From a virus (Duplodnaviria; Caudoviricetes), in IMG/VR virus record IMGVR_UViG_3300031890_000033, positions 1 through 33,717 of that record: a stretch of 33,717 nt of DNA, one strand, 5' to 3'. Below are positions 2,740 through 32,208 of the stretch, piece by piece. Made by a program: the position numbers and the translations under genes. The number at the start of each line of letters is the position of its first letter. Position 1 is the first letter of the stretch. A model generated the notes under the pieces. The model had not been told where the DNA came from. It ran no database searches and was given only the letters and a program-made list of their open reading frames with translations.

Positions 2740-2805
2740 GTAGGGATTCCTCTCTGTAGTGCGCGTGATTTACGGTTATACCGATGGTATGCGCGCGCCA
2801 CCAAA

Positions 2806-5235: not shown

Positions 5236-6232
5236 ACGGATCTATTGATTGCATTGTAGTGGATATAAAATATTCTGTGTCACCGCCGGATTCGTCAAGT
5301 TCGCATAGATCAAAAAATTTGCAGAAGTAACAGTCACGTTGAGGAGTTTTCAACAACGGCATGCGTCCGGTTCGCACGTCGTCCATAACACGGGCCTCTT
5401 CAGAGATACGGACAACTTGCCGTTGACGTTCTTTACTTGTGCGCGGAACAAAATAACGTAGGAAGTTTGGTGAACCTTGTTTCTTACTGACACTACCATC
5501 TTTGTTAAGTCTTTGACCATCTTCGTCAGTCGGCCTATCATCAATCCTGCCACGGCGAACAAAGTTATACTCCATTCCGACAATGCGTTCAGTTGGCTCA
5601 ATTAAGCCCTGATGTCTTAACGCTGTTGTACCTACGGCGATGTATGTACTAGCTTGTTCATCTAATGTAAGGTGATACGTGATTATATCTTTCGCAGTTT
5701 TATGATCAACCATCTTTACTTGATTATCATTAAGGTCACGAACGCAAAGATCAAAAGTCCCAACGACCCTAACAATAGGCCGATACCCACGCTTACCCTT
5801 CTCCGAGACCATTGGTTTGTACCGGACATCGGGGATAATAACATCAAACTGCCGCTCAGCATCCAATACAAGCCAATGAGGATCGCCGCGATACAATTCG
5901 ACATACGCTTCGGCCAAGTCCAATCCAAGGTCATGGAAATCTTCCCACTTGGCTACAGTCTCGTCGTTGGTGTAATCAGTGGTCTTCACAGCTGCAACTA
6001 CATCACTAGATAATTTGTCCCACGTATCCGCAGGATGTGGGCCACGTTCTAAGCCAGGTATGTAATACTCAGCTAACGCTATATGAAAAAGAGACCCAAA
6101 ATCAGCAGCTTCTTTTCCAAGCTCGACTTTGGGTCTAATTCTGCGAACGTACTCCATATACCAGGCCCATGCGCAACGTTTAAATGCTGCCCGTTCACTT
6201 TGGCGGAGAAGTGGAAGTTCTTCAACGTTCAT
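5183..6232 (-). CDS. RecB-like/Cas4-family PD-(D/E)XK exonuclease
   Basis: SER..FKRC, FGSLFH, E..F, GTFDL, VDHKT, Q...Y and C-terminal CYFC.F..LC. Confidence 0.85.
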   Translation of the reverse strand: MNVEELPLLRQSERAAFKRCAWAWYMEYVRRIRPKVELGKEAADFGSLFHIALAEYYIPGLERGPHPADTWDKLSSDVVAAVKTTDYTNDETVAKWEDFHDLGLDLAEAYVELYRGDPHWLVLDAERQFDVIIPDVRYKPMVSEKGKRGYRPIVRVVGTFDLCVRDLNDNQVKMVDHKTAKDIITYHLTLDEQASTYIAVGTTALRHQGLIEPTERIVGMEYNFVRRGRIDDRPTDEDGQRLNKDGSVSKKQGSPNFLRYFVPRTSKERQRQVVRISEEARVMDDVRTGRMPLLKTPQRDCYFCKFFDLCELDESGGDTEYFISTTMQSIDPYADHREGAISSKKLHDA

Positions 6233-7109
6233 GAGTCATTCCTAAATAATGACTTAATTCTCCACCATGGAGCATGGACCATTTCTTCCAGCCAGGTAGG
6301 TATGTATCATATGCCTTTTGCCAGCTAACTCTGATTGAATTTTGTTTATCGAAGTCAGCTTTGTCTGGATTGTTAACAATATTTGGATACTTAGCGTACA
6401 GCTGTTCGTGCCACAATTTCTTTTTTGCCTTGAGATTACCTTCGCCACCTGCATAATCAAGCATACCGCCAGGTTGATAGCGAGTGCCTACTGAATTTGA
6501 TCGTGTTCCCAAGTGAATCATCCATGGATAGCCAGCTTGTAGCCCACGTAAGAATAGGTCATTGTCTTCAGCATATTCTAAGTGCTTATCGTAATTACCA
6601 ATTTCAAGCACGTTATCGACATTTAATGCTACAAGCCTAAAAGTCCCGGTAGGCAATAAAATAAGATCATCACGGCCTCTTATTAATCTCCCAAGACAAA
6701 GATCATGATAGCCATATCTAGCTGTGATACCTAAAACTTTATGGTGTGTAGCACAAGCTGCAAAATTACTCATGCTATTGTATTTAACATTTGGCTTTAT
6801 GTCGTCATCAGCAAGCACTATAGATTTCATGCCCCAACTGCCGGCTAAGTTGATGCAATGCATTCTACTATGTCCAATGCCACCATTCCTAATTGGCAAA
6901 GGGTGAATGCTTATTGTTGGATTCTGATTTTGAGCGCCTGGTCTTGATCTGAACATATATCTGAGATATGTGTCTTGTTCATCTGGCTCAACAATGAAAT
7001 GAACATGAAAGTTTAGGCTTCGCCAAGATTCAACAAGCTTGGCGGCTTCTTCCCAGCGCCCACGTGATGGAATGAATACGTGGTTACCCATTATCGTGAA
7101 CCGGGTCAT
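6222..7109 (-). CDS. GT-A fold glycosyltransferase (GREB1/TET-associated glycosyltransferase-like)
   Basis: VFIPSRGR, IVEPDE...Y, GIG.SR, LADDD, EDNDL.LR and PGG motifs. Confidence 0.72.
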   Translation of the reverse strand: MTRFTIMGNHVFIPSRGRWEEAAKLVESWRSLNFHVHFIVEPDEQDTYLRYMFRSRPGAQNQNPTISIHPLPIRNGGIGHSRMHCINLAGSWGMKSIVLADDDIKPNVKYNSMSNFAACATHHKVLGITARYGYHDLCLGRLIRGRDDLILLPTGTFRLVALNVDNVLEIGNYDKHLEYAEDNDLFLRGLQAGYPWMIHLGTRSNSVGTRYQPGGMLDYAGGEGNLKAKKKLWHEQLYAKYPNIVNNPDKADFDKQNSIRVSWQKAYDTYLPGWKKWSMLHGGELSHYLGMTHER

Positions 7110-7295: not shown

Positions 7296-7460
7296 ATGGT
7301 TTAATTTTACTGGGTGAACTGGTGTTCACGGGAATGCGGAGAGGAACCCCTTCGACTACACACTCCCGCGAACGCCAGAACACCCAGTGCGGGAAAACCG
7401 TGGCAGGAAAACCGCACTGGGGCTGGGGCAGACTTGGGATGCCCATCTGCCATGGGCGCT
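7296..7460 (-). ncRNA. candidate structured intergenic RNA (RNA-1)
   Basis: About 25-bp imperfect stem 7309-7333/7364-7388, alternative 10-bp stem 7383-7392/7412-7421 and hairpin 7441-7457. The loop carries GGGGUUCCUCUCC. Confidence 0.55.
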
Positions 7461-10184: not shown

Positions 10185-10216
10185 TGGGTTCCTCTCGTTC
10201 TTCTGTCCATACTTTA

Positions 10217-12963: not shown

Positions 12964-14183
12964 TACTTAATCTCTTTCCTGTTTTGTTCTTTGACTTCTT
13001 CATCGGCTCGCAAATTCACGCTTTGCGCCGCTGCTTGACCACGAGACCATGCAGCTGCGTCATATCGCGTAGTTGGGTCCTCGCGAATTGCGCGATACCT
13101 GATTCGCGCTGTTGTTTGACGCTTACGCCACCGTTCTTCTTCTCTCAAACGATCACGCGCGATCTTGGCTTTTTCGACATCACTGAGCGCATCCCACTTC
13201 GCTTGGCGTTCAGCATCACGCTGAGCATCCTTTTGTCGTTTGACTTCTGGATCAAACTCAGGAAACACGCGATAGAATTCAGCATCCACACGATCTCGCG
13301 TATCGACCAGTGCGAGCGCGAATTTATTGGCGTCCACATGCTCTTCACCTTCTTGAGCAATTTTCCTGATATCATCGAGCCGTTTCTTGATTGTTGCCCG
13401 ATATGATCGCGCAAAACTATTTCGCGTGGCTATTCTTAACTGAGTCCCGCCAGCATACGGATATTTGAGATCCTTGCTATCACAATATTTCTTGCACGCT
13501 CGCTTCAACTTATGAATTGATTGGCCCCACGGCGTGTTACCTGGGTCAATCGCTTCGCCAACTTTCCAGCCTAGCTTTGTGTAGAACATTTCTGCCTGAT
13601 CTTGATCTTGATAACGCCATGGCCACTTCAATCGTGTGTCTTTCGCCTTCTCAGCTAGCAACACTTGATTTTTCCAGCTTACGCCAGCGCTCGCGAATAC
13701 ATATGCGTTGTACTCGATGGACTTGTTGATGTCCCATTGCGGATTGACATTATTAACGAATGTCTTGAAAACATTGAACCAAATCCTTTCCGCGTAGGTA
13801 ATGTCGTCTTTGTATCCGACGATCTGATATATCCGCTGCCCCTCACGATACCGCCAATTGGTATTCACGCGAACGTTACAATGGTCGAGGATATACATCA
13901 TCATATCCACGACCTGGTTGTCGAACTCCCATTGGTCATTTACTGCTTCGCTGCGTTGTTCTGCGAAGTTCACTGACCAACTTTCGGTTACTGGAGTGCG
14001 AACTCTGTTACCACCGCGTTCTGCAGCTTGGCGGGCCTCGTGCTCATCAATCATATGTTGAGCCATCAGCTTTTCTGCGCGTTCCTCCGCCAATTCACGC
14101 TCGTGCGGTGATGCGCCTTCATCAGCTGCCAAAAGCAACAGTTTGTTGATTCTGGCCATTATATTTTCATTTGGTTCGGTCAT
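12963..14183 (-). CDS. DUF2786-domain protein
   Basis: N-terminal RINKLL.LA......ERELA...A.KLM..H.I and C-terminal A..RG..AA..VNL. Confidence 0.8.
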   Translation of the reverse strand: MTEPNENIMARINKLLLLAADEGASPHERELAEERAEKLMAQHMIDEHEARQAAERGGNRVRTPVTESWSVNFAEQRSEAVNDQWEFDNQVVDMMMYILDHCNVRVNTNWRYREGQRIYQIVGYKDDITYAERIWFNVFKTFVNNVNPQWDINKSIEYNAYVFASAGVSWKNQVLLAEKAKDTRLKWPWRYQDQDQAEMFYTKLGWKVGEAIDPGNTPWGQSIHKLKRACKKYCDSKDLKYPYAGGTQLRIATRNSFARSYRATIKKRLDDIRKIAQEGEEHVDANKFALALVDTRDRVDAEFYRVFPEFDPEVKRQKDAQRDAERQAKWDALSDVEKAKIARDRLREEERWRKRQTTARIRYRAIREDPTTRYDAAAWSRGQAAAQSVNLRADEEVKEQNRKEIK

Positions 14184-14620
14184 GGGTTCCTCTCCTGTAA
14201 TTCACCTAACGGATTACAAATTAACACTGGTTTTCTCTGTTTGAGAGCATAGTGAATGGTGTACCACGTACCACTACCTCGCATCTTCTCTGGGCCATCA
14301 GGTAATGCAATCAGCTTATCAACAGCATTAACAATATCTCTGTTCCTCGGGAGGAATTCTTTCCTTGGATACCATATACAATTGGCATAGTCCCAGTCTG
14401 TGTACTTCATTTCACGCGATGTGTCGATCGACGGGTGAAGGATGATTTGCTCAAGTCCTAAGTCTAGGCTGTTTTTAGCTACTTTATGCGCAAATGCATC
14501 AGAACCAACGCAACAACCGTGATGGAACTCTGCTGGAGAATTGTCCAACACATATTGGAGCAGCCATCTCTTTTGCTCCGACGTTGGCTCGTGACGAGAA
14601 CCTGTGAAACCTAGGTTCAC
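14180..14620 (-). CDS. SLOG-superfamily (DprA/Smf-like) nucleotide-binding protein
   Basis: GFTGSR, HHGCCVGSD, RNRDIV...D.LIA, SGTWYTIHYA. Start GTG 14620. Confidence 0.78.
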   Translation of the reverse strand: MNLGFTGSRHEPTSEQKRWLLQYVLDNSPAEFHHGCCVGSDAFAHKVAKNSLDLGLEQIILHPSIDTSREMKYTDWDYANCIWYPRKEFLPRNRDIVNAVDKLIALPDGPEKMRGSGTWYTIHYALKQRKPVLICNPLGELQERNP

Positions 14621-15790: not shown

Positions 15791-15799
15791 GGGTTCCTC

Positions 15800-16075
15800 T
15801 CATCCTGGTGATTTGTATATCTTTTTTGCGTCGGCTAAATCCGACATCTTACCGGCTGTTGTTTGCCGGAAGTGCGTGGACGAGTTTACGACTGCTGGTT
15901 TGATTTCCAAAACAGTCGCAGTACTCGGCTTGACTCTAACGCGCAACTTTGGGTCATGATGTTGCATAGCTTCCGCGTGTTGCGCAGCGTCATCTTGCTC
16001 GTCATGCGTGCTGCGTACTGTCCACACTTGTCTTTTCGCATTCCACGCTAAGACTCGCCAAACTGGCTTTTTCAA
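15800..16075 (-). CDS. hypothetical protein
   Basis: Start reassigned to TTG 16075 because the RBS motif at 16078-16088 and the promoter at 16117-16145 lie inside the longer ORF call. Confidence 0.65.
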   Translation of the reverse strand: MKKPVWRVLAWNAKRQVWTVRSTHDEQDDAAQHAEAMQHHDPKLRVRVKPSTATVLEIKPAVVNSSTHFRQTTAGKMSDLADAKKIYKSPG

Positions 16076-16116
16076 TTGGGTTCCTCTCGATGAGTCCTCT
16101 CTCACCTTCACCTCTA

Positions 16117-17471: not shown

Positions 17472-17504
17472 TGTAGTTCCTCTCAGAAACGGTTGCGTCG
17501 CATA

Positions 17505-18283: not shown

Positions 18284-18484
18284 TTAATTTTGGGCTCCTC
18301 TCGTGGTTGAAGCGGGCTTTTGCTCGTTGCAACCTTGCCAGATTTCATATTCCTTGATCCACTTGTGTGGCTTCTCAAAAAAGTACACCACATCTGTCGC
18401 TGCATTAAGATAGCCAGCGTCAATCAGAATTGTAGCAAACTCGCATAGCCCATCAAGTGTTTGCGGCATTTGCATTATTGTCAT
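18284..18484 (-). CDS. hypothetical protein
   Basis: Contains V.YFFEKPHKW..EY..W; coupled to neighbours. Confidence 0.65.
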   Translation of the reverse strand: MTIMQMPQTLDGLCEFATILIDAGYLNAATDVVYFFEKPHKWIKEYEIWQGCNEQKPASTTRGAQN

Positions 18485-19070: not shown

Positions 19071-19081
19071 TGGGGTTCCTC

Positions 19082-19471
19082 TCAGGATAGCTCTGCTTTT
19101 AGCAGGGCCATTTCGATTTCAATTGCCTTGAGCTCTTTCTGTATTTGCTCTTGGCTCTTGCCTTGTTTAGTTGTTGATTTAGTTGTGTTACCGTTGTTGT
19201 CTATGTCGTTGTCTTGGTCGTTGTCTATACTTTGCAGCTTGCCGGCATAGAACTGGTGGTGCCTATCTCTGGACCGTTTTCTGTACGGCCCAAATGGTAG
19301 GTCTATGTGGTTGAGCGTTTCGTTATCGGTGGAGTTAGGCCCGAATCGCACGGTACATAGGTATTTGGGGTAGCCGTGTGGAGTTACCCCATCTACCTCC
19401 ATGCCGATAATTTCAGCATGGCCACCATAACCTTTTACCGTTACGATGTCGCCGATCTGAAACTTGGCCAT
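19082..19471 (-). CDS. hypothetical protein (SH3-like N-terminus, C-terminal coiled coil)
   Basis: Begins MAKFQIGDIVTVKG; start at the TAATG overlap 19471. Confidence 0.65.
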   Translation of the reverse strand: MAKFQIGDIVTVKGYGGHAEIIGMEVDGVTPHGYPKYLCTVRFGPNSTDNETLNHIDLPFGPYRKRSRDRHHQFYAGKLQSIDNDQDNDIDNNGNTTKSTTKQGKSQEQIQKELKAIEIEMALLKAELS

Positions 19472-19722: not shown

Positions 19723-19794
19723 TGTTGGGTTCCTCTCTGATTTTTACTTTTTTCTCTCTTTTGTTTTGCTCTAGAACCTCGGGCTATAAGCCCG

Positions 19795-20710: not shown

Positions 20711-20781
20711 CATCGTAGACACACCAAAACGCCCACGCTGGCCCACACCACGCGTAACACAAAATTTTGGCGCAGGCGGGT

Positions 20782-21003
20782 GATCAGAACATGCGTGTGG
20801 CTTGTTTAGCACAGATCAGAACATCGTACCGGCTTGATATCCAAGATCGGAACATGCGTAATTGTTTGGGCACATCAGAACTTGCGGTTAGCGCCGAATC
20901 AGAAGATCGTGCCGGCCACGAGCAGAACTTAGTTCAGCTAACGGATCAGAACTTAGTTCAGCTAACGGATCAGAACTTAGTTCAGCTAACGATCAGAACT
21001 TAG
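20782..21003 (+). repeat. iteron-like array: nine GATCAGAAC-like motifs, the last part a 24-bp tandem repeat (CAGAACTTAGTTCAGCTAACGGAT, about 3.4 copies)
   Basis: Motif starts at 20782, 20814, 20845, 20873, 20897, 20920, 20944, 20968 and 20991. Tandem units span 20923-21003. Confidence 0.85.
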
Positions 21004-21204: not shown

Positions 21205-21558
21205 GTGGCAGTTAAAAGTATCGTCTCGGAGTTCGTTAACGAGACCGACGAGAGTTCCGCTCGTTTCTACCTCGCGAAGCTCGCCGAGAGCGGAGTTAAC
21301 CCCGACGAACTTACCTTCGTCGAACTCGTCGCCGTAACCCGTAAGTGGCACGGCGAGTGGCAGCGTAGCGACGCTCGTCGCGACGAGCGCGACGCGATCG
21401 CCGAAGCGCGCGAAGCGGAGCGTAAAGCCGAACGGCTCGCGAATCTCGCGAAAAAGCGCGACTCTCTCGTCGCGGCCGCGAAGCGCGACGCCGAACGGGC
21501 CGCGAAGCGCGAGGCGGCTCTCGCCGAACTCGCCGAAGCGGGTCTACTCGATTCGTAA
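21205..21558 (+). CDS. 117-aa HxEWQ/coiled-coil protein encoded by a TG/CA-depleted gene
   Basis: GTG start with GGAAGGA RBS, own promoter and terminator; similar to the 7461-7904 product. Confidence 0.8.
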   Translation: MAVKSIVSEFVNETDESSARFYLAKLAESGVNPDELTFVELVAVTRKWHGEWQRSDARRDERDAIAEAREAERKAERLANLAKKRDSLVAAAKRDAERAAKREAALAELAEAGLLDS

Positions 21559-21650: not shown

Positions 21651-21767
21651 GGGGGGAGGGGTTCATTGTCGCGGTGCACGCCGGACCGATCGTGTGTAGG
21701 TTCAAGGCAACACTTAGCCTATCTAAGTAATGTAGCGGAATATAACTGAAAGGCGTATAATCTAAGT

Positions 21768-22226
21768 ATGATCCCTGTCACCGGCTACTCCGGTTGGTCG
21801 GTTGATGAGTATGGTAATGCTTATGAGAATGGTGTATTAGTACCGGGCCACGCTCAGGATAGCGGTCATATACTTCTCGGTCACTTCAAGTACCGGCGCG
21901 CTATCCTTGTGTGCACAGCATTCCATGGACCGCCTCCAGAGCATGATTCAATGGCGTGTCACAAAGATGATGTAGGTGGCAACGATATCCCAAGTAACCT
22001 GTACTGGGGCAATGCTTCAAGCAACGCCAGGGATGCATGGCGTAATGGCAGGCGCGCAGCTTGCGGATCAAAAGCATCAGGTTCAAAACTCATCGAAGAA
22101 CAAGTCATAGAAATCAGACACATATATCCATCAATGTCACGTAAACAATTAGCCAAGATGTATGGCGTTAGCGGTATAACAATTCATCACATCATTAACC
22201 GGGTAACATGGACACACGTGCCATGA
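21768..22226 (+). CDS. HNH homing endonuclease (I-HmuI/NUMOD4-like) with C-terminal HTH, probably leaderless
   Basis: LVCTAFHGPPP....ACHKDD...ND..SNLYWG..SSN..D. TATAAT at 21756-61 is 6 nt before the ATG. Confidence 0.85.
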   Translation: MIPVTGYSGWSVDEYGNAYENGVLVPGHAQDSGHILLGHFKYRRAILVCTAFHGPPPEHDSMACHKDDVGGNDIPSNLYWGNASSNARDAWRNGRRAACGSKASGSKLIEEQVIEIRHIYPSMSRKQLAKMYGVSGITIHHIINRVTWTHVP

Positions 22227-24622: not shown

Positions 24623-25528
24623 ATGAGTGAGCCGATTAAGACGACACGCAAAGCCCTAACCCCATTTGGCGGGATAAGGGGTCAGGCTGGCTTTCAGAAG
24701 CTCAAAGAGGAAGCAATACGCAAGCTACCTCGCCAGGAATGCTTTGATAGAGGCTACATTACGGTCAAGGAACTGGACGATGAGGAGCTAGTAGCTGGGC
24801 GCTGTCGCGATGCTAACGGACGGATACCAAAGCCTAAAGGCAAGACCGAGTACATACCGCGTGAGCTATACGATGAGATGGTGGCGGAGCACGAGCTTAG
24901 GTATAAGCAGAAGCTGCGTGAAAACCTTGACAATATGCTAGACGTGATGATTGAAATTGCTGAAGATGAAACGGTGGAGCCGCGCGATAGGCTGGAGGCG
25001 GCTAAATATTTATTTGAGAGGACAGCTGGTAAGACACCCGAAACTGTTACGGTCAATGTTAAGCACGCGCCGTGGGAGGAGTTGCTTAGCCAGGTTGCTG
25101 GGATCGCGCCAATGAGCAGACAGGAACACCGTGACTTAGGCGTGGGGATTGTTGACGCGGAGTTAGTTGAAGTGGACGAGGACGGCGAACCGATTACCGG
25201 CGAACCAATTTCAGAAGACGATATGAACAAGTATTGGGTTGAAGGCGATATAACGCACCATGCACCAGGTCAGCCGCAAACAGAACCGCACCAGGCAGAG
25301 CCAGAACGCAACTACGGTCGCCGGGCGGATGAAGCCCGAAGCTACCAACAGCAGGTTCAGGATGCGCAAGACTTAGCAAAGCGACGTAAAGAAGCCAAGG
25401 CAAAAATACAGAACGCAAAAAAGCAGCGCAAAATTGACCGAGCTATGGGAGCTGATGCGATTAGGGATGAGATTACTGGTGTAACATTGGACGAGGATGG
25501 TAAGGTTAAATTTGTCCAGGGTCAATAG
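24623..25528 (+). CDS. putative terminase small subunit
   Basis: Lies upstream of terL; helical motif PRDRLEAAKYLFERTAGKTP..V.V resembles actinophage small terminases; GAGGAG RBS. Confidence 0.5.
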   Translation: MSEPIKTTRKALTPFGGIRGQAGFQKLKEEAIRKLPRQECFDRGYITVKELDDEELVAGRCRDANGRIPKPKGKTEYIPRELYDEMVAEHELRYKQKLRENLDNMLDVMIEIAEDETVEPRDRLEAAKYLFERTAGKTPETVTVNVKHAPWEELLSQVAGIAPMSRQEHRDLGVGIVDAELVEVDEDGEPITGEPISEDDMNKYWVEGDITHHAPGQPQTEPHQAEPERNYGRRADEARSYQQQVQDAQDLAKRRKEAKAKIQNAKKQRKIDRAMGADAIRDEITGVTLDEDGKVKFVQGQ

Positions 25529-25537
25529 GTACCCGTC

Positions 25538-25564
25538 GCGCGATGAGCCGGGTAAGGGTATAAT
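25538..25564 (+). promoter_or_regulatory. late-type promoter GCGCGATGAG-N11-TATAAT
   Basis: The same upstream decamer and spacing recur at 32182-32208. Confidence 0.6.
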
Positions 25565-25568
25565 CGAA

Positions 25569-25700
25569 GTGTGTACGAACTCAGCGGACCTTCTACCGGG
25601 TCTTTCCTCGCGCCTGACTCCTCGCACACAACAAGTGGTGGCTCGGTCCAGGTCTTGGGTTCCTCTCAGAATACGGTTGCTGGACCGAGTTCACCCACAG
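25569..25700 (+). ncRNA. candidate structured RNA / 5' leader (RNA-2)
   Basis: Begins just after TATAAT. Perfect 10-bp stem CTCGGTCCAG (25642-51)/CTGGACCGAG (25680-89), extendable; its loop contains UUGGGUUCCUCUCAGAA. An upstream domain is closed by GTGTG/CACAC. Confidence 0.55.
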
Positions 25701-25741
25701 GCTCAATTCCAGGTAGCAAGATAACAGGAGGAAAACCCAAA

Positions 25742-25924
25742 ATGGCATGGCAAGTTCCTTACAAGAGGATGGCGCTCCACCCTATTCCTCGCGTGGTCGA
25801 TAATACTGACCAGATGGCCATCGAACAGCGCGCCATCAACTACAGCCACCACCCAATTCGGTATGCTGACATGCCTGGTGGGCCTGGTACATTCGCGCCG
25901 TATGGAAACACTAACTTCAAATAA
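25742..25924 (+). CDS. hypothetical protein (60 aa)
   Basis: Start reassigned to ATG 25742 after AGGAGG. Confidence 0.65.
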   Translation: MAWQVPYKRMALHPIPRVVDNTDQMAIEQRAINYSHHPIRYADMPGGPGTFAPYGNTNFK

Positions 25925-32181: not shown

Positions 32182-32208
32182 GCGCGATGAGTCGCGGTCG
32201 CGTAGGAT
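32182..32208 (+). promoter_or_regulatory. late-type promoter GCGCGATGAG-N11-TAGGAT
   Basis: Intergenic, upstream of the scaffold gene; matches 25538-25564. Confidence 0.55.

Follow-up and report, generated by a model that had tools for sequence, protein, structure and literature searches.

Known systems acting on shared translation starts

Staphylococcal RNAIII and RsaE are host regulators that present a short anti-Shine-Dalgarno seed (UCCC) in a loop and act on multiple targets. Repression of many mRNAs by pairing of a hairpin loop to their ribosome-binding site (RBS) has been shown in mycobacteria for the sRNA B11/6C (PMC10470900). In phage T4, the endoribonuclease RegB and the repressor RegA shut down a set of early mRNAs via a feature shared by their initiation regions (PMC3014915).

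The SAS of cluster K phages is an asymmetric repeat located at the RBS position, a few nucleotides 5' of the starts of non-structural genes, and its conserved bases extend beyond those pairing with the 16S rRNA (PMC3203893). Each K1 genome also harbors one oppositely oriented copy lacking a tie to a start, and Pope et al. (2011) left open an RNA or protein ligand (PMC3203893). The SAS is also present in cluster EF Microbacterium phages (PMC7302621) and is brought up only as a contrast in another study (PMC4351075). Its role was called unknown or unverified in 2011, 2024, and 2025 (PMC3203893, PMC11373665, PMC12699233). The accessible parts of the SAS literature (PMC3203893, PMC7302621, PMC11373665, PMC12699233) contain no function and no hairpin or RNA account of the reversed copy, and no description of an antisense partner was found in the openly accessible main texts. 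Mycobacteriophage small RNAs of unknown function have been reported (PMC5712189).

The locus described here, RNA-2, is a pair of hairpins, one of which carries the reversed copy of such a tag. As far as the accessible part of the B11/6C report goes, RNA-2 resembles that sRNA by its pyrimidine-rich hairpin loops, its two hairpins, and its actinobacterial setting, whereas B11 is encoded by the host and recognizes generic G-runs some 6 nt long and RNA-2 is phage-encoded and matches a private, co-varying tag of 9-14 nt (PMC10470900). In contrast to the 6C/B11 type, which has C-runs in open loops, the RNA-2 loops are devoid of C-runs, and RNA-2 has no Rfam match and is seemingly embedded in an operon. 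Compared by description, RNA-2 shares with RNAIII and RsaE the loop-borne anti-Shine-Dalgarno seed and the multiple targets, although the latter RNAs have no dedicated tag. Unlike RegB and RegA, which are proteins, the phage element would recognize its targets by RNA pairing; no RegB- or RegA-like match was detected among the 65 ORFs of the window, which covers about half a genome. RNA-2 would work like a loop-seeded, multi-target anti-RBS RNA outside every curated family, the new part being a private tag that changes together with the hairpin loop.

A tagged set of genes on the leftward arm

The window, the 33,717-nucleotide stretch analyzed here, is the entire record G000, a partial phage genome (about half a genome, 47% G+C). 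Family searches assigned to its leftward arm genes for an SNF2-type helicase, a PD-(D/E)XK exonuclease, a Sak4-like protein, an Lsr2 domain, DUF2786, and DUF6011, and to its rightward arm genes for the terminase, portal, and scaffold (PHROGs and Pfam). The terminase is 58% identical to those of Mycobacterium phages Aikoy, Onyinye, and Leopard and 43-54% identical to those of PBI1, Hawkeye, Fowlmouth, Papyrus, Patience, and Barnyard. The host is probably actinobacterial, and the leftward genes are likely to be early, as judged from their content and position.

Other features of the window were observed in passing. TET-associated glycosyltransferase-like and NT5C-like genes (6222-7109 and 731-2401) suggest DNA modification. 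Repeats of GATCAGAAC(T/A)T occupy the non-coding divergence region separating the two arms (20780-21000), a possible origin or packaging region. A TATAAT located 6 nt 5' of the ATG of an HNH gene (21756-21770) suggests a leaderless transcript, and TCGCGAGAAAA precedes two Ala/Lys/Glu-rich ORFs (21205-21558, plus strand, and 7904-7461, minus strand), possibly as a shared promoter class.

Seven leftward starts are each preceded, at a distance of 0-6 nt, by GAGAGGAACCC or a close variant, which overlaps the Shine-Dalgarno position. These seven copies and two further variants are located as follows.

10186..10196, minus strand: SAS GAGAGGAACCC, SNF2-type helicase gene
14184..14194, minus strand: SAS, DUF2786 gene
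15791..15801, minus strand: SAS, ORF 15790-15209
16078..16088, minus strand: SAS, TTG at 16075 (start inferred from the motif)
17474..17495, minus strand: extended SAS GCAACCGTTTCTGAGAGGAACTA, DUF6011 gene, best predicted RNA-2 target
19073..19083, minus strand: SAS, ORF 19070-18666
19727..19737, minus strand: SAS, ORF 19722-19471
18292..18302, minus strand: SAS variant GAGAGGAGCCC, G-U compatible, ORF 18283
2744..2754, minus strand: SAS variant GAGAGGAATCC, G-U compatible, ORF 2739

All exact sense copies in the window are on the leftward arm, and none was found in the rightward 24.7 kb of the near-identical genome G004. Two copies are reversed on transcribed strands, at 25657-67 in RNA-2 and at 7339-50 in a second structure, RNA-1. 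The start of the gene for the terminase small subunit (TerS) carries the tag variant GAGAGGAGCC, which is not conserved, being absent from the loci of seven relatives; PBI1 also has a tag variant 5' of TerS. These variants before TerS do not fit a purely early set.

Like the published SAS, the window tag is a conserved asymmetric repeat preceding non-structural genes in a single orientation, with the exception of the variant before TerS. Its sequence differs from the cluster K consensus, GGGATAGGAGCCC; it is the same kind of element with another sequence. We also found SAS in PBI1, Hawkeye, Konstantine, Papyrus, Fowlmouth, Cuke, Indlulamithi, Onyinye, and LittleFella. A previous reading of the window, made from the sequence only, had proposed an undescribed system; the tag is not undescribed, since it is a SAS as in clusters K and EF, and the novelty resides in the antisense hairpin.

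RNA-2 follows a predicted late promoter and presents the complement of the tag

The region of RNA-2 comprises the following features.

24623..25528, plus strand: TerS gene (phrog_10899, E 1e-31), syntenic anchor upstream of RNA-2
25538..25564, plus strand: predicted late promoter, GCGCGATGAG, 11 nt, TATAAT (hexamer 25559-64)
25569..25629, plus strand: hairpin 1, conserved loop motif TCTTTCCTCGCGCC at 25601-25614
25635..25698, plus strand: hairpin 2 (seed hairpin), stem 25642-25651/25680-25689, loop 25652-25679
25657..25667, plus strand: anti-SAS seed GGGTTCCTCTC, within the loop of hairpin 2
25742..25924, plus strand: small conserved ORF (60 aa) directly 3' of RNA-2, which would be its 5' leader
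32182..32208, plus strand: second promoter-motif copy, 5' of the head scaffold gene (scaffold called by family matches)

The perfect 10-bp stem of the sequence-only reading is present: CTCGGTCCAG (25642-25651) is fully paired with CTGGACCGAG (25680-25689). Two details needed correction, since the loop is 28 nt long rather than 19 nt and the stem, said to follow TATAAT immediately, begins about 80 nt past it, with hairpin 1 in between. The copy at 25657-67, read on the minus strand, is followed by no start codon in the next 20 nt, as had been noted.

Exact copies of GCGCGATGAG-N11-TA(T/G)(A/G)AT in the window are limited to the RNA-2 promoter and the site before the scaffold gene, and this common motif supports the late class that had been proposed for the promoter. 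A TATAAT- or TATACT-like hexamer is found at the equivalent place in five relatives, and G002 and G003 have a similar promoter motif 5' of the scaffold region. The promoter at 25559 was not among the predictions of a sigma-70 consensus scan of the window. A search for intrinsic terminators detected no terminator-like site behind RNA-2 (25700-25745), which counts against the proposed repression. RNA-2 is therefore more likely to belong to the late transcript, as its leader or a fragment processed from it, than to be a free-standing sRNA. The 60-aa ORF had no family match in PHROGs or Pfam, the Rfam scan of the window returned no family at RNA-2 and two chance-level matches elsewhere, and ARAGORN returned no match.

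The loop 15-mer TCTTGGGTTCCTCTC has 8 matches in the window at no more than 2 mismatches versus 0.04 expected, and none of 100 shuffles reached 8. The longest perfect complement to the loop is 13 nt at starts 10184, 15790, 16075, 17471, 19070, and 19722 and 12 nt at 14183, versus at most 9 nt for the remaining 55 of the 62 starts, in a list that was compiled in this analysis and in which the TTG at 16075 was picked because of the motif. The 12-13 nt of perfect complementarity previously claimed for seven named starts is thus what was measured. By energy of the duplex with RNA-2 (RNAduplex, accessibility left out), the seven SAS starts rank 1-4, 7, 9, and 10 of 62. The best predicted duplex, at the DUF6011 start (17471), reaches -40.4 kcal/mol with about 20 nt paired, the 3' side of the loop (to 25681) lengthening the pairing.

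The seed hairpin on its own has a fold z of -3.0, and for the complete 177-nt leader the fold is no more stable than those of shuffled sequences (z -0.12). The hairpin 2 loop is predicted to be partly paired, CUCUCA alone being clearly open (unpaired probability 0.95-0.97); the predicted pairing of much of the seed inside the loop speaks against repression.

Hairpin 1 is conserved in sequence in six sequences, with compensatory changes at 0 of 15 pairs, and its complementarity to any of the 62 starts does not exceed 8 nt. As a side observation, its loop motif CCTCGCGC (25601-25614) is kept in 8 of 9 close-clade sequences, and no group of genes in the window carries a target for it. A second anti-Shine-Dalgarno loop is one possibility, and a DNA site akin to the promoter's TCGCGC is another. 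A pattern scan for the motif gave 69 loci, contig L070 being the sole new relative among them.

Conservation of RNA-2 and relation to RNA-1

Five distinct relatives with TerS proteins 63-70% identical to that of the window share the layout directly 3' of TerS. Across the six aligned sequences, GGTTCCTCTC is unchanged while the stem carries compensatory changes, and GGTTCCTCTCA, in the seed region, is invariant in all six. In the stem of hairpin 2, 6 of 12 pairs are changed on both sides and 95.8% of the cells are paired. None of 500 shuffles showed covariation as high, a figure that is not a probability because the six sequences are related, and slid controls were far lower. G-U and G-C are exchanged at three stem pairs, an alternation that suits the plus strand in the clade of the window. 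The element is a conserved, non-coding structure with covariation. CCCTC-rich loops are present in a dozen further relatives. Separately, we observed the post-TerS hairpin in distant uncultured phages (L243, L245, L280, L281, L285, L289, L290, and L291), with variable loops mostly ending in GGTTG.

The other reversed copy is carried by RNA-1.

~7309..7388, minus strand: RNA-1, long hairpin with GGGGUUCCUCUC at the tip, separating the helicase and exonuclease genes

This hairpin, also present in the sequence-only reading, is real (z -8.9), and homologues of its stem were found in L170-L173. The stem (GGGTGTTCTGG...CCAG..CACCC) is conserved in L171 (10330-10440), L172 (2890-2975), and L173 (4305-4380), where the tips are quite different and the anti-tag sits in a separate nearby hairpin. 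A covariance model (R1) searched over 27 sources gave RNA-2 itself as the only confident match; homology between RNA-1 and RNA-2 is unsupported because RNA-1 scored only 15 bits (E 0.3).

Co-variation of loop and tag across phages

In the complete record G001, the hairpin following TerS has another loop, which is complementary to that phage's own tag, CCCAACAACCAGAG, located 5' of the DUF6011 and DUF2786 orthologues among the early genes. At the level of sequence comparison, this co-variation is non-circular because the hairpin was located by its position before the tag was known. Different SAS, each mirrored in an intergenic hairpin, were found in G001, PBI1, Hawkeye, Konstantine, Indlulamithi, Cuke, LittleFella, and cluster K1.

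A survey of 31 genomes relied on gene calls by a simple script and on start-associated 9-mers, a tag being defined as a 9-mer before at least 5 genes. Genomes were positive if a reverse copy of a top-three 9-mer lay between genes on the sense strand and was enclosed by 14 or more pairs. These thresholds were fixed post hoc, after seeing the first results. Tags were present in 23 of the 31 genomes; in the other eight (Barnyard, DrLupo, Patience, LilyPad, Djokovic, Ranch, P3.1, and Wollypog), the search detected no SAS at five genes. Eleven of the 23 were positive (G000, G001, Indlulamithi, Cuke, Konstantine, PBI1, Hawkeye, LittleFella, Anaya, Adephagia, and Kratio, the site of the latter being less than 30 nt from a called start), with motif families assigned by hand (matches in 7 of 10 labels) and several genomes being close kin. 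Testing tags against genomes of another motif family gave 0 positives in 614 controls, and shuffled tags were positive in 0-8% of cases. Among the tag-bearing genomes gathered once the idea was formed, 4 of 9 were positive.

No hairpin copy was detected in the tag-bearing genomes of TM4, ZoeJ, Pixie, Unicorn, Aminay, Gilda, Sparcetus, and Kurnik. Papyrus, G012, and Onyinye failed with partial or non-apical anti-tag copies, and Fowlmouth because its visible hairpin was missed by the top-three rule. The 12 failures among 23 genomes indicate that the SAS can occur without a detectable anti-SAS hairpin. In addition, the post-TerS hairpins of Onyinye and G012 have loops lacking a match of at least 9 nt to the phage's own tag (0 of 105 genes in Onyinye). 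The system is thus common but not obligatory, or pairing is looser in some lineages. The co-variation of loop and RBS motif, the decisive computation called for at the outset, was largely borne out, with 11 of 23 genomes positive versus 0 of the 614 controls, the remaining 12 genomes and the mismatched loops standing against it.

When 12 hand-picked loops were compared with 11 genomes, the resulting matrix was block-diagonal, with 5-16 genes matched in the loop's own genome for 10 of the 11 genomes versus 0-5 off-block. Seeds of the hairpin-2 type match the non-16S positions of each private tag over 9-14 nt. The hairpins occupy two main slots, directly after TerS (window, G002, G001, PBI1, and Hawkeye) or between the helicase and exonuclease genes (RNA-1 of the window, Indlulamithi, Fowlmouth, Cuke, and Konstantine); tag-matching copies are also present in the second slot of G001 and G012. 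In cluster K1, the opposite-orientation copy is a hairpin loop in Anaya and Adephagia, and the reversed-copy stretch is kept in 130 phage records. The Adephagia copy (58689) falls in the gap between genes 92 and 93, in which, according to the accessible part of the report, late transcription starts (PMC11373665).

Several side observations concern further loops. A second type of anti-tag, single-stranded and followed by a hairpin, sits just ahead of the cluster of tagged genes, where the structural arm ends, in Indlulamithi (34482), Papyrus (37410), Fowlmouth (33177), and Cuke (29667); G012 (719), G001 (66395), and Onyinye (40048) have copies in similar places. G011 combines a variant loop, GGGTTCCTTT, with two AAAGGAA(A/C) starts, too few to count. 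The loops of L008, L009, and L289 predict the tags ACAACCAGAGAAAA, CAACCAAAAGGGAG, and CAACCAGGGAGGG, respectively; a search of 20.8 kb of the L009/L296 phage for the predicted tag found two loose sites only.

Proposed mechanism and alternative readings

Since loop and tag co-vary across related phages, the RNA likely silences the tagged genes as a group. We propose, with a probability of roughly 0.68, that the loop RNA, likely made from the predicted late promoter, pairs in trans with the tagged, likely early mRNAs and represses their translation together. That loop and tag pair in some role is, from these comparisons, highly probable; repression, its timing, and the expression of RNA-2 are inferred.

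The tag lies on the Shine-Dalgarno position and ends 0-6 nt from the start codon, and the comparison of relatives indicates that the plus-strand stem is kept by compensatory change while the loop follows each phage's tag. RNA-2 would be a late product, either heading the packaging-operon transcript or cut out of it, and RNA-1, in the replication operon, would supply an earlier dose. Pairing would be seeded by the open CUCUCA and extend over 12-13 bp, or about 20 in the case of the DUF6011 start, and the duplex would keep the 30S subunit off, by analogy with B11/6C. More speculatively, mRNA decay might follow, or a phage or host protein might assist. The antisense silencing initially suggested is supported as regards the pairing of loop and tag, by the co-variation in survey and matrix, and repression is its likely consequence. 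The 'early-to-late switch' is too narrow a term, because several relatives keep an anti-tag hairpin only between the helicase and exonuclease genes. Titration of a factor recognizing the motif, the other option raised earlier, is weak because the loop displays the complement of the motif rather than the motif.

The co-variation evidence speaks to pairing and is silent on its sign. The loop could accordingly activate or stabilize the tagged mRNAs, or serve as a private initiation adaptor, and some tags are indeed weak Shine-Dalgarno sequences (Konstantine, GAAACGGACA) and several phages hold the hairpin within the non-structural region. We regard this as improbable: the predicted duplex would cover the Shine-Dalgarno core and the spacer up to the start codon, and RNA-2 and the K1 copy sit where late transcripts begin, after the time at which the tagged genes are needed.

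Instead, a phage protein could bind the motif as DNA or RNA, with the reversed copy acting as an extra operator or as an opposite-strand decoy showing the tag in its loop. A protein ligand was left open by Pope et al. in the accessible part of their report (PMC3203893), and the 12 genomes with a SAS and no detected hairpin copy would fit. The opposite strand folds equally well or better in PBI1, LittleFella, and Anaya, and the G-U wobble test did not support RNA pairing (33/888 versus 60/927, in the opposite direction; 24/845 versus 27/825 at core positions, null). Nevertheless, a DNA operator would not need a compensatory stem, the G-U exchanges in the clade of the window favor the plus strand, which the predicted promoter also faces, and the reversed copy is restricted to transcribed-strand hairpins in seven hand-assigned motif families. 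On balance, a protein site is also unlikely.

The hairpin might also serve generally as a structural leader or as a signal for processing, its pyrimidine-rich loop being a generic anti-Shine-Dalgarno sequence that acts in cis on the gene that follows or else on host mRNAs. The persistence of the post-TerS hairpin with mismatched loops in Onyinye and G012, the CCCTC-rich loops of the dozen further relatives, and the predicted pairing of the hairpin-1 loop of the window with the downstream RBS are consistent with this reading, which is nonetheless quite unlikely given that the hairpin-2 seed fits the non-16S positions of private tags over 9-14 nt and matches the downstream RBS over 7 nt only. 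Finally, that the reversed copies are inert duplication relics or that the region codes for a leaderless N-terminal extension is very unlikely and largely refuted: the frame that begins at GTG 25571 and reads on into the following gene is open in the window and L002 and broken in the other 4 of 6 sequences, on which ground the coding reading was rejected, and stems vary among phages while loops track the tag, with 0 of 614 controls positive.

Implications for phage gene regulation

Trans-acting repression by the hairpin loop would give the SAS a concrete mechanism, testable in cultured phages that grow on laboratory M. smegmatis (Adephagia, PBI1, Konstantine, and Cuke). If correct, it would provide an RNA-only route for a phage to shut off its early regulon, something that proteins such as T4 RegB are known to do. 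In a broader and doubtful extension, SAS would be the address labels of a dedicated RNA-guided silencing system in which each lineage evolves a tag and a matching hairpin guide in later operons, possibly with a protein partner, one loop reprogramming 5-20 genes. Such a system, if it exists, would be an orthogonal and retargetable timer across several unrelated phage clusters. The natural, non-cross-reacting tag/loop pairs are possible translational switches for actinobacteria.
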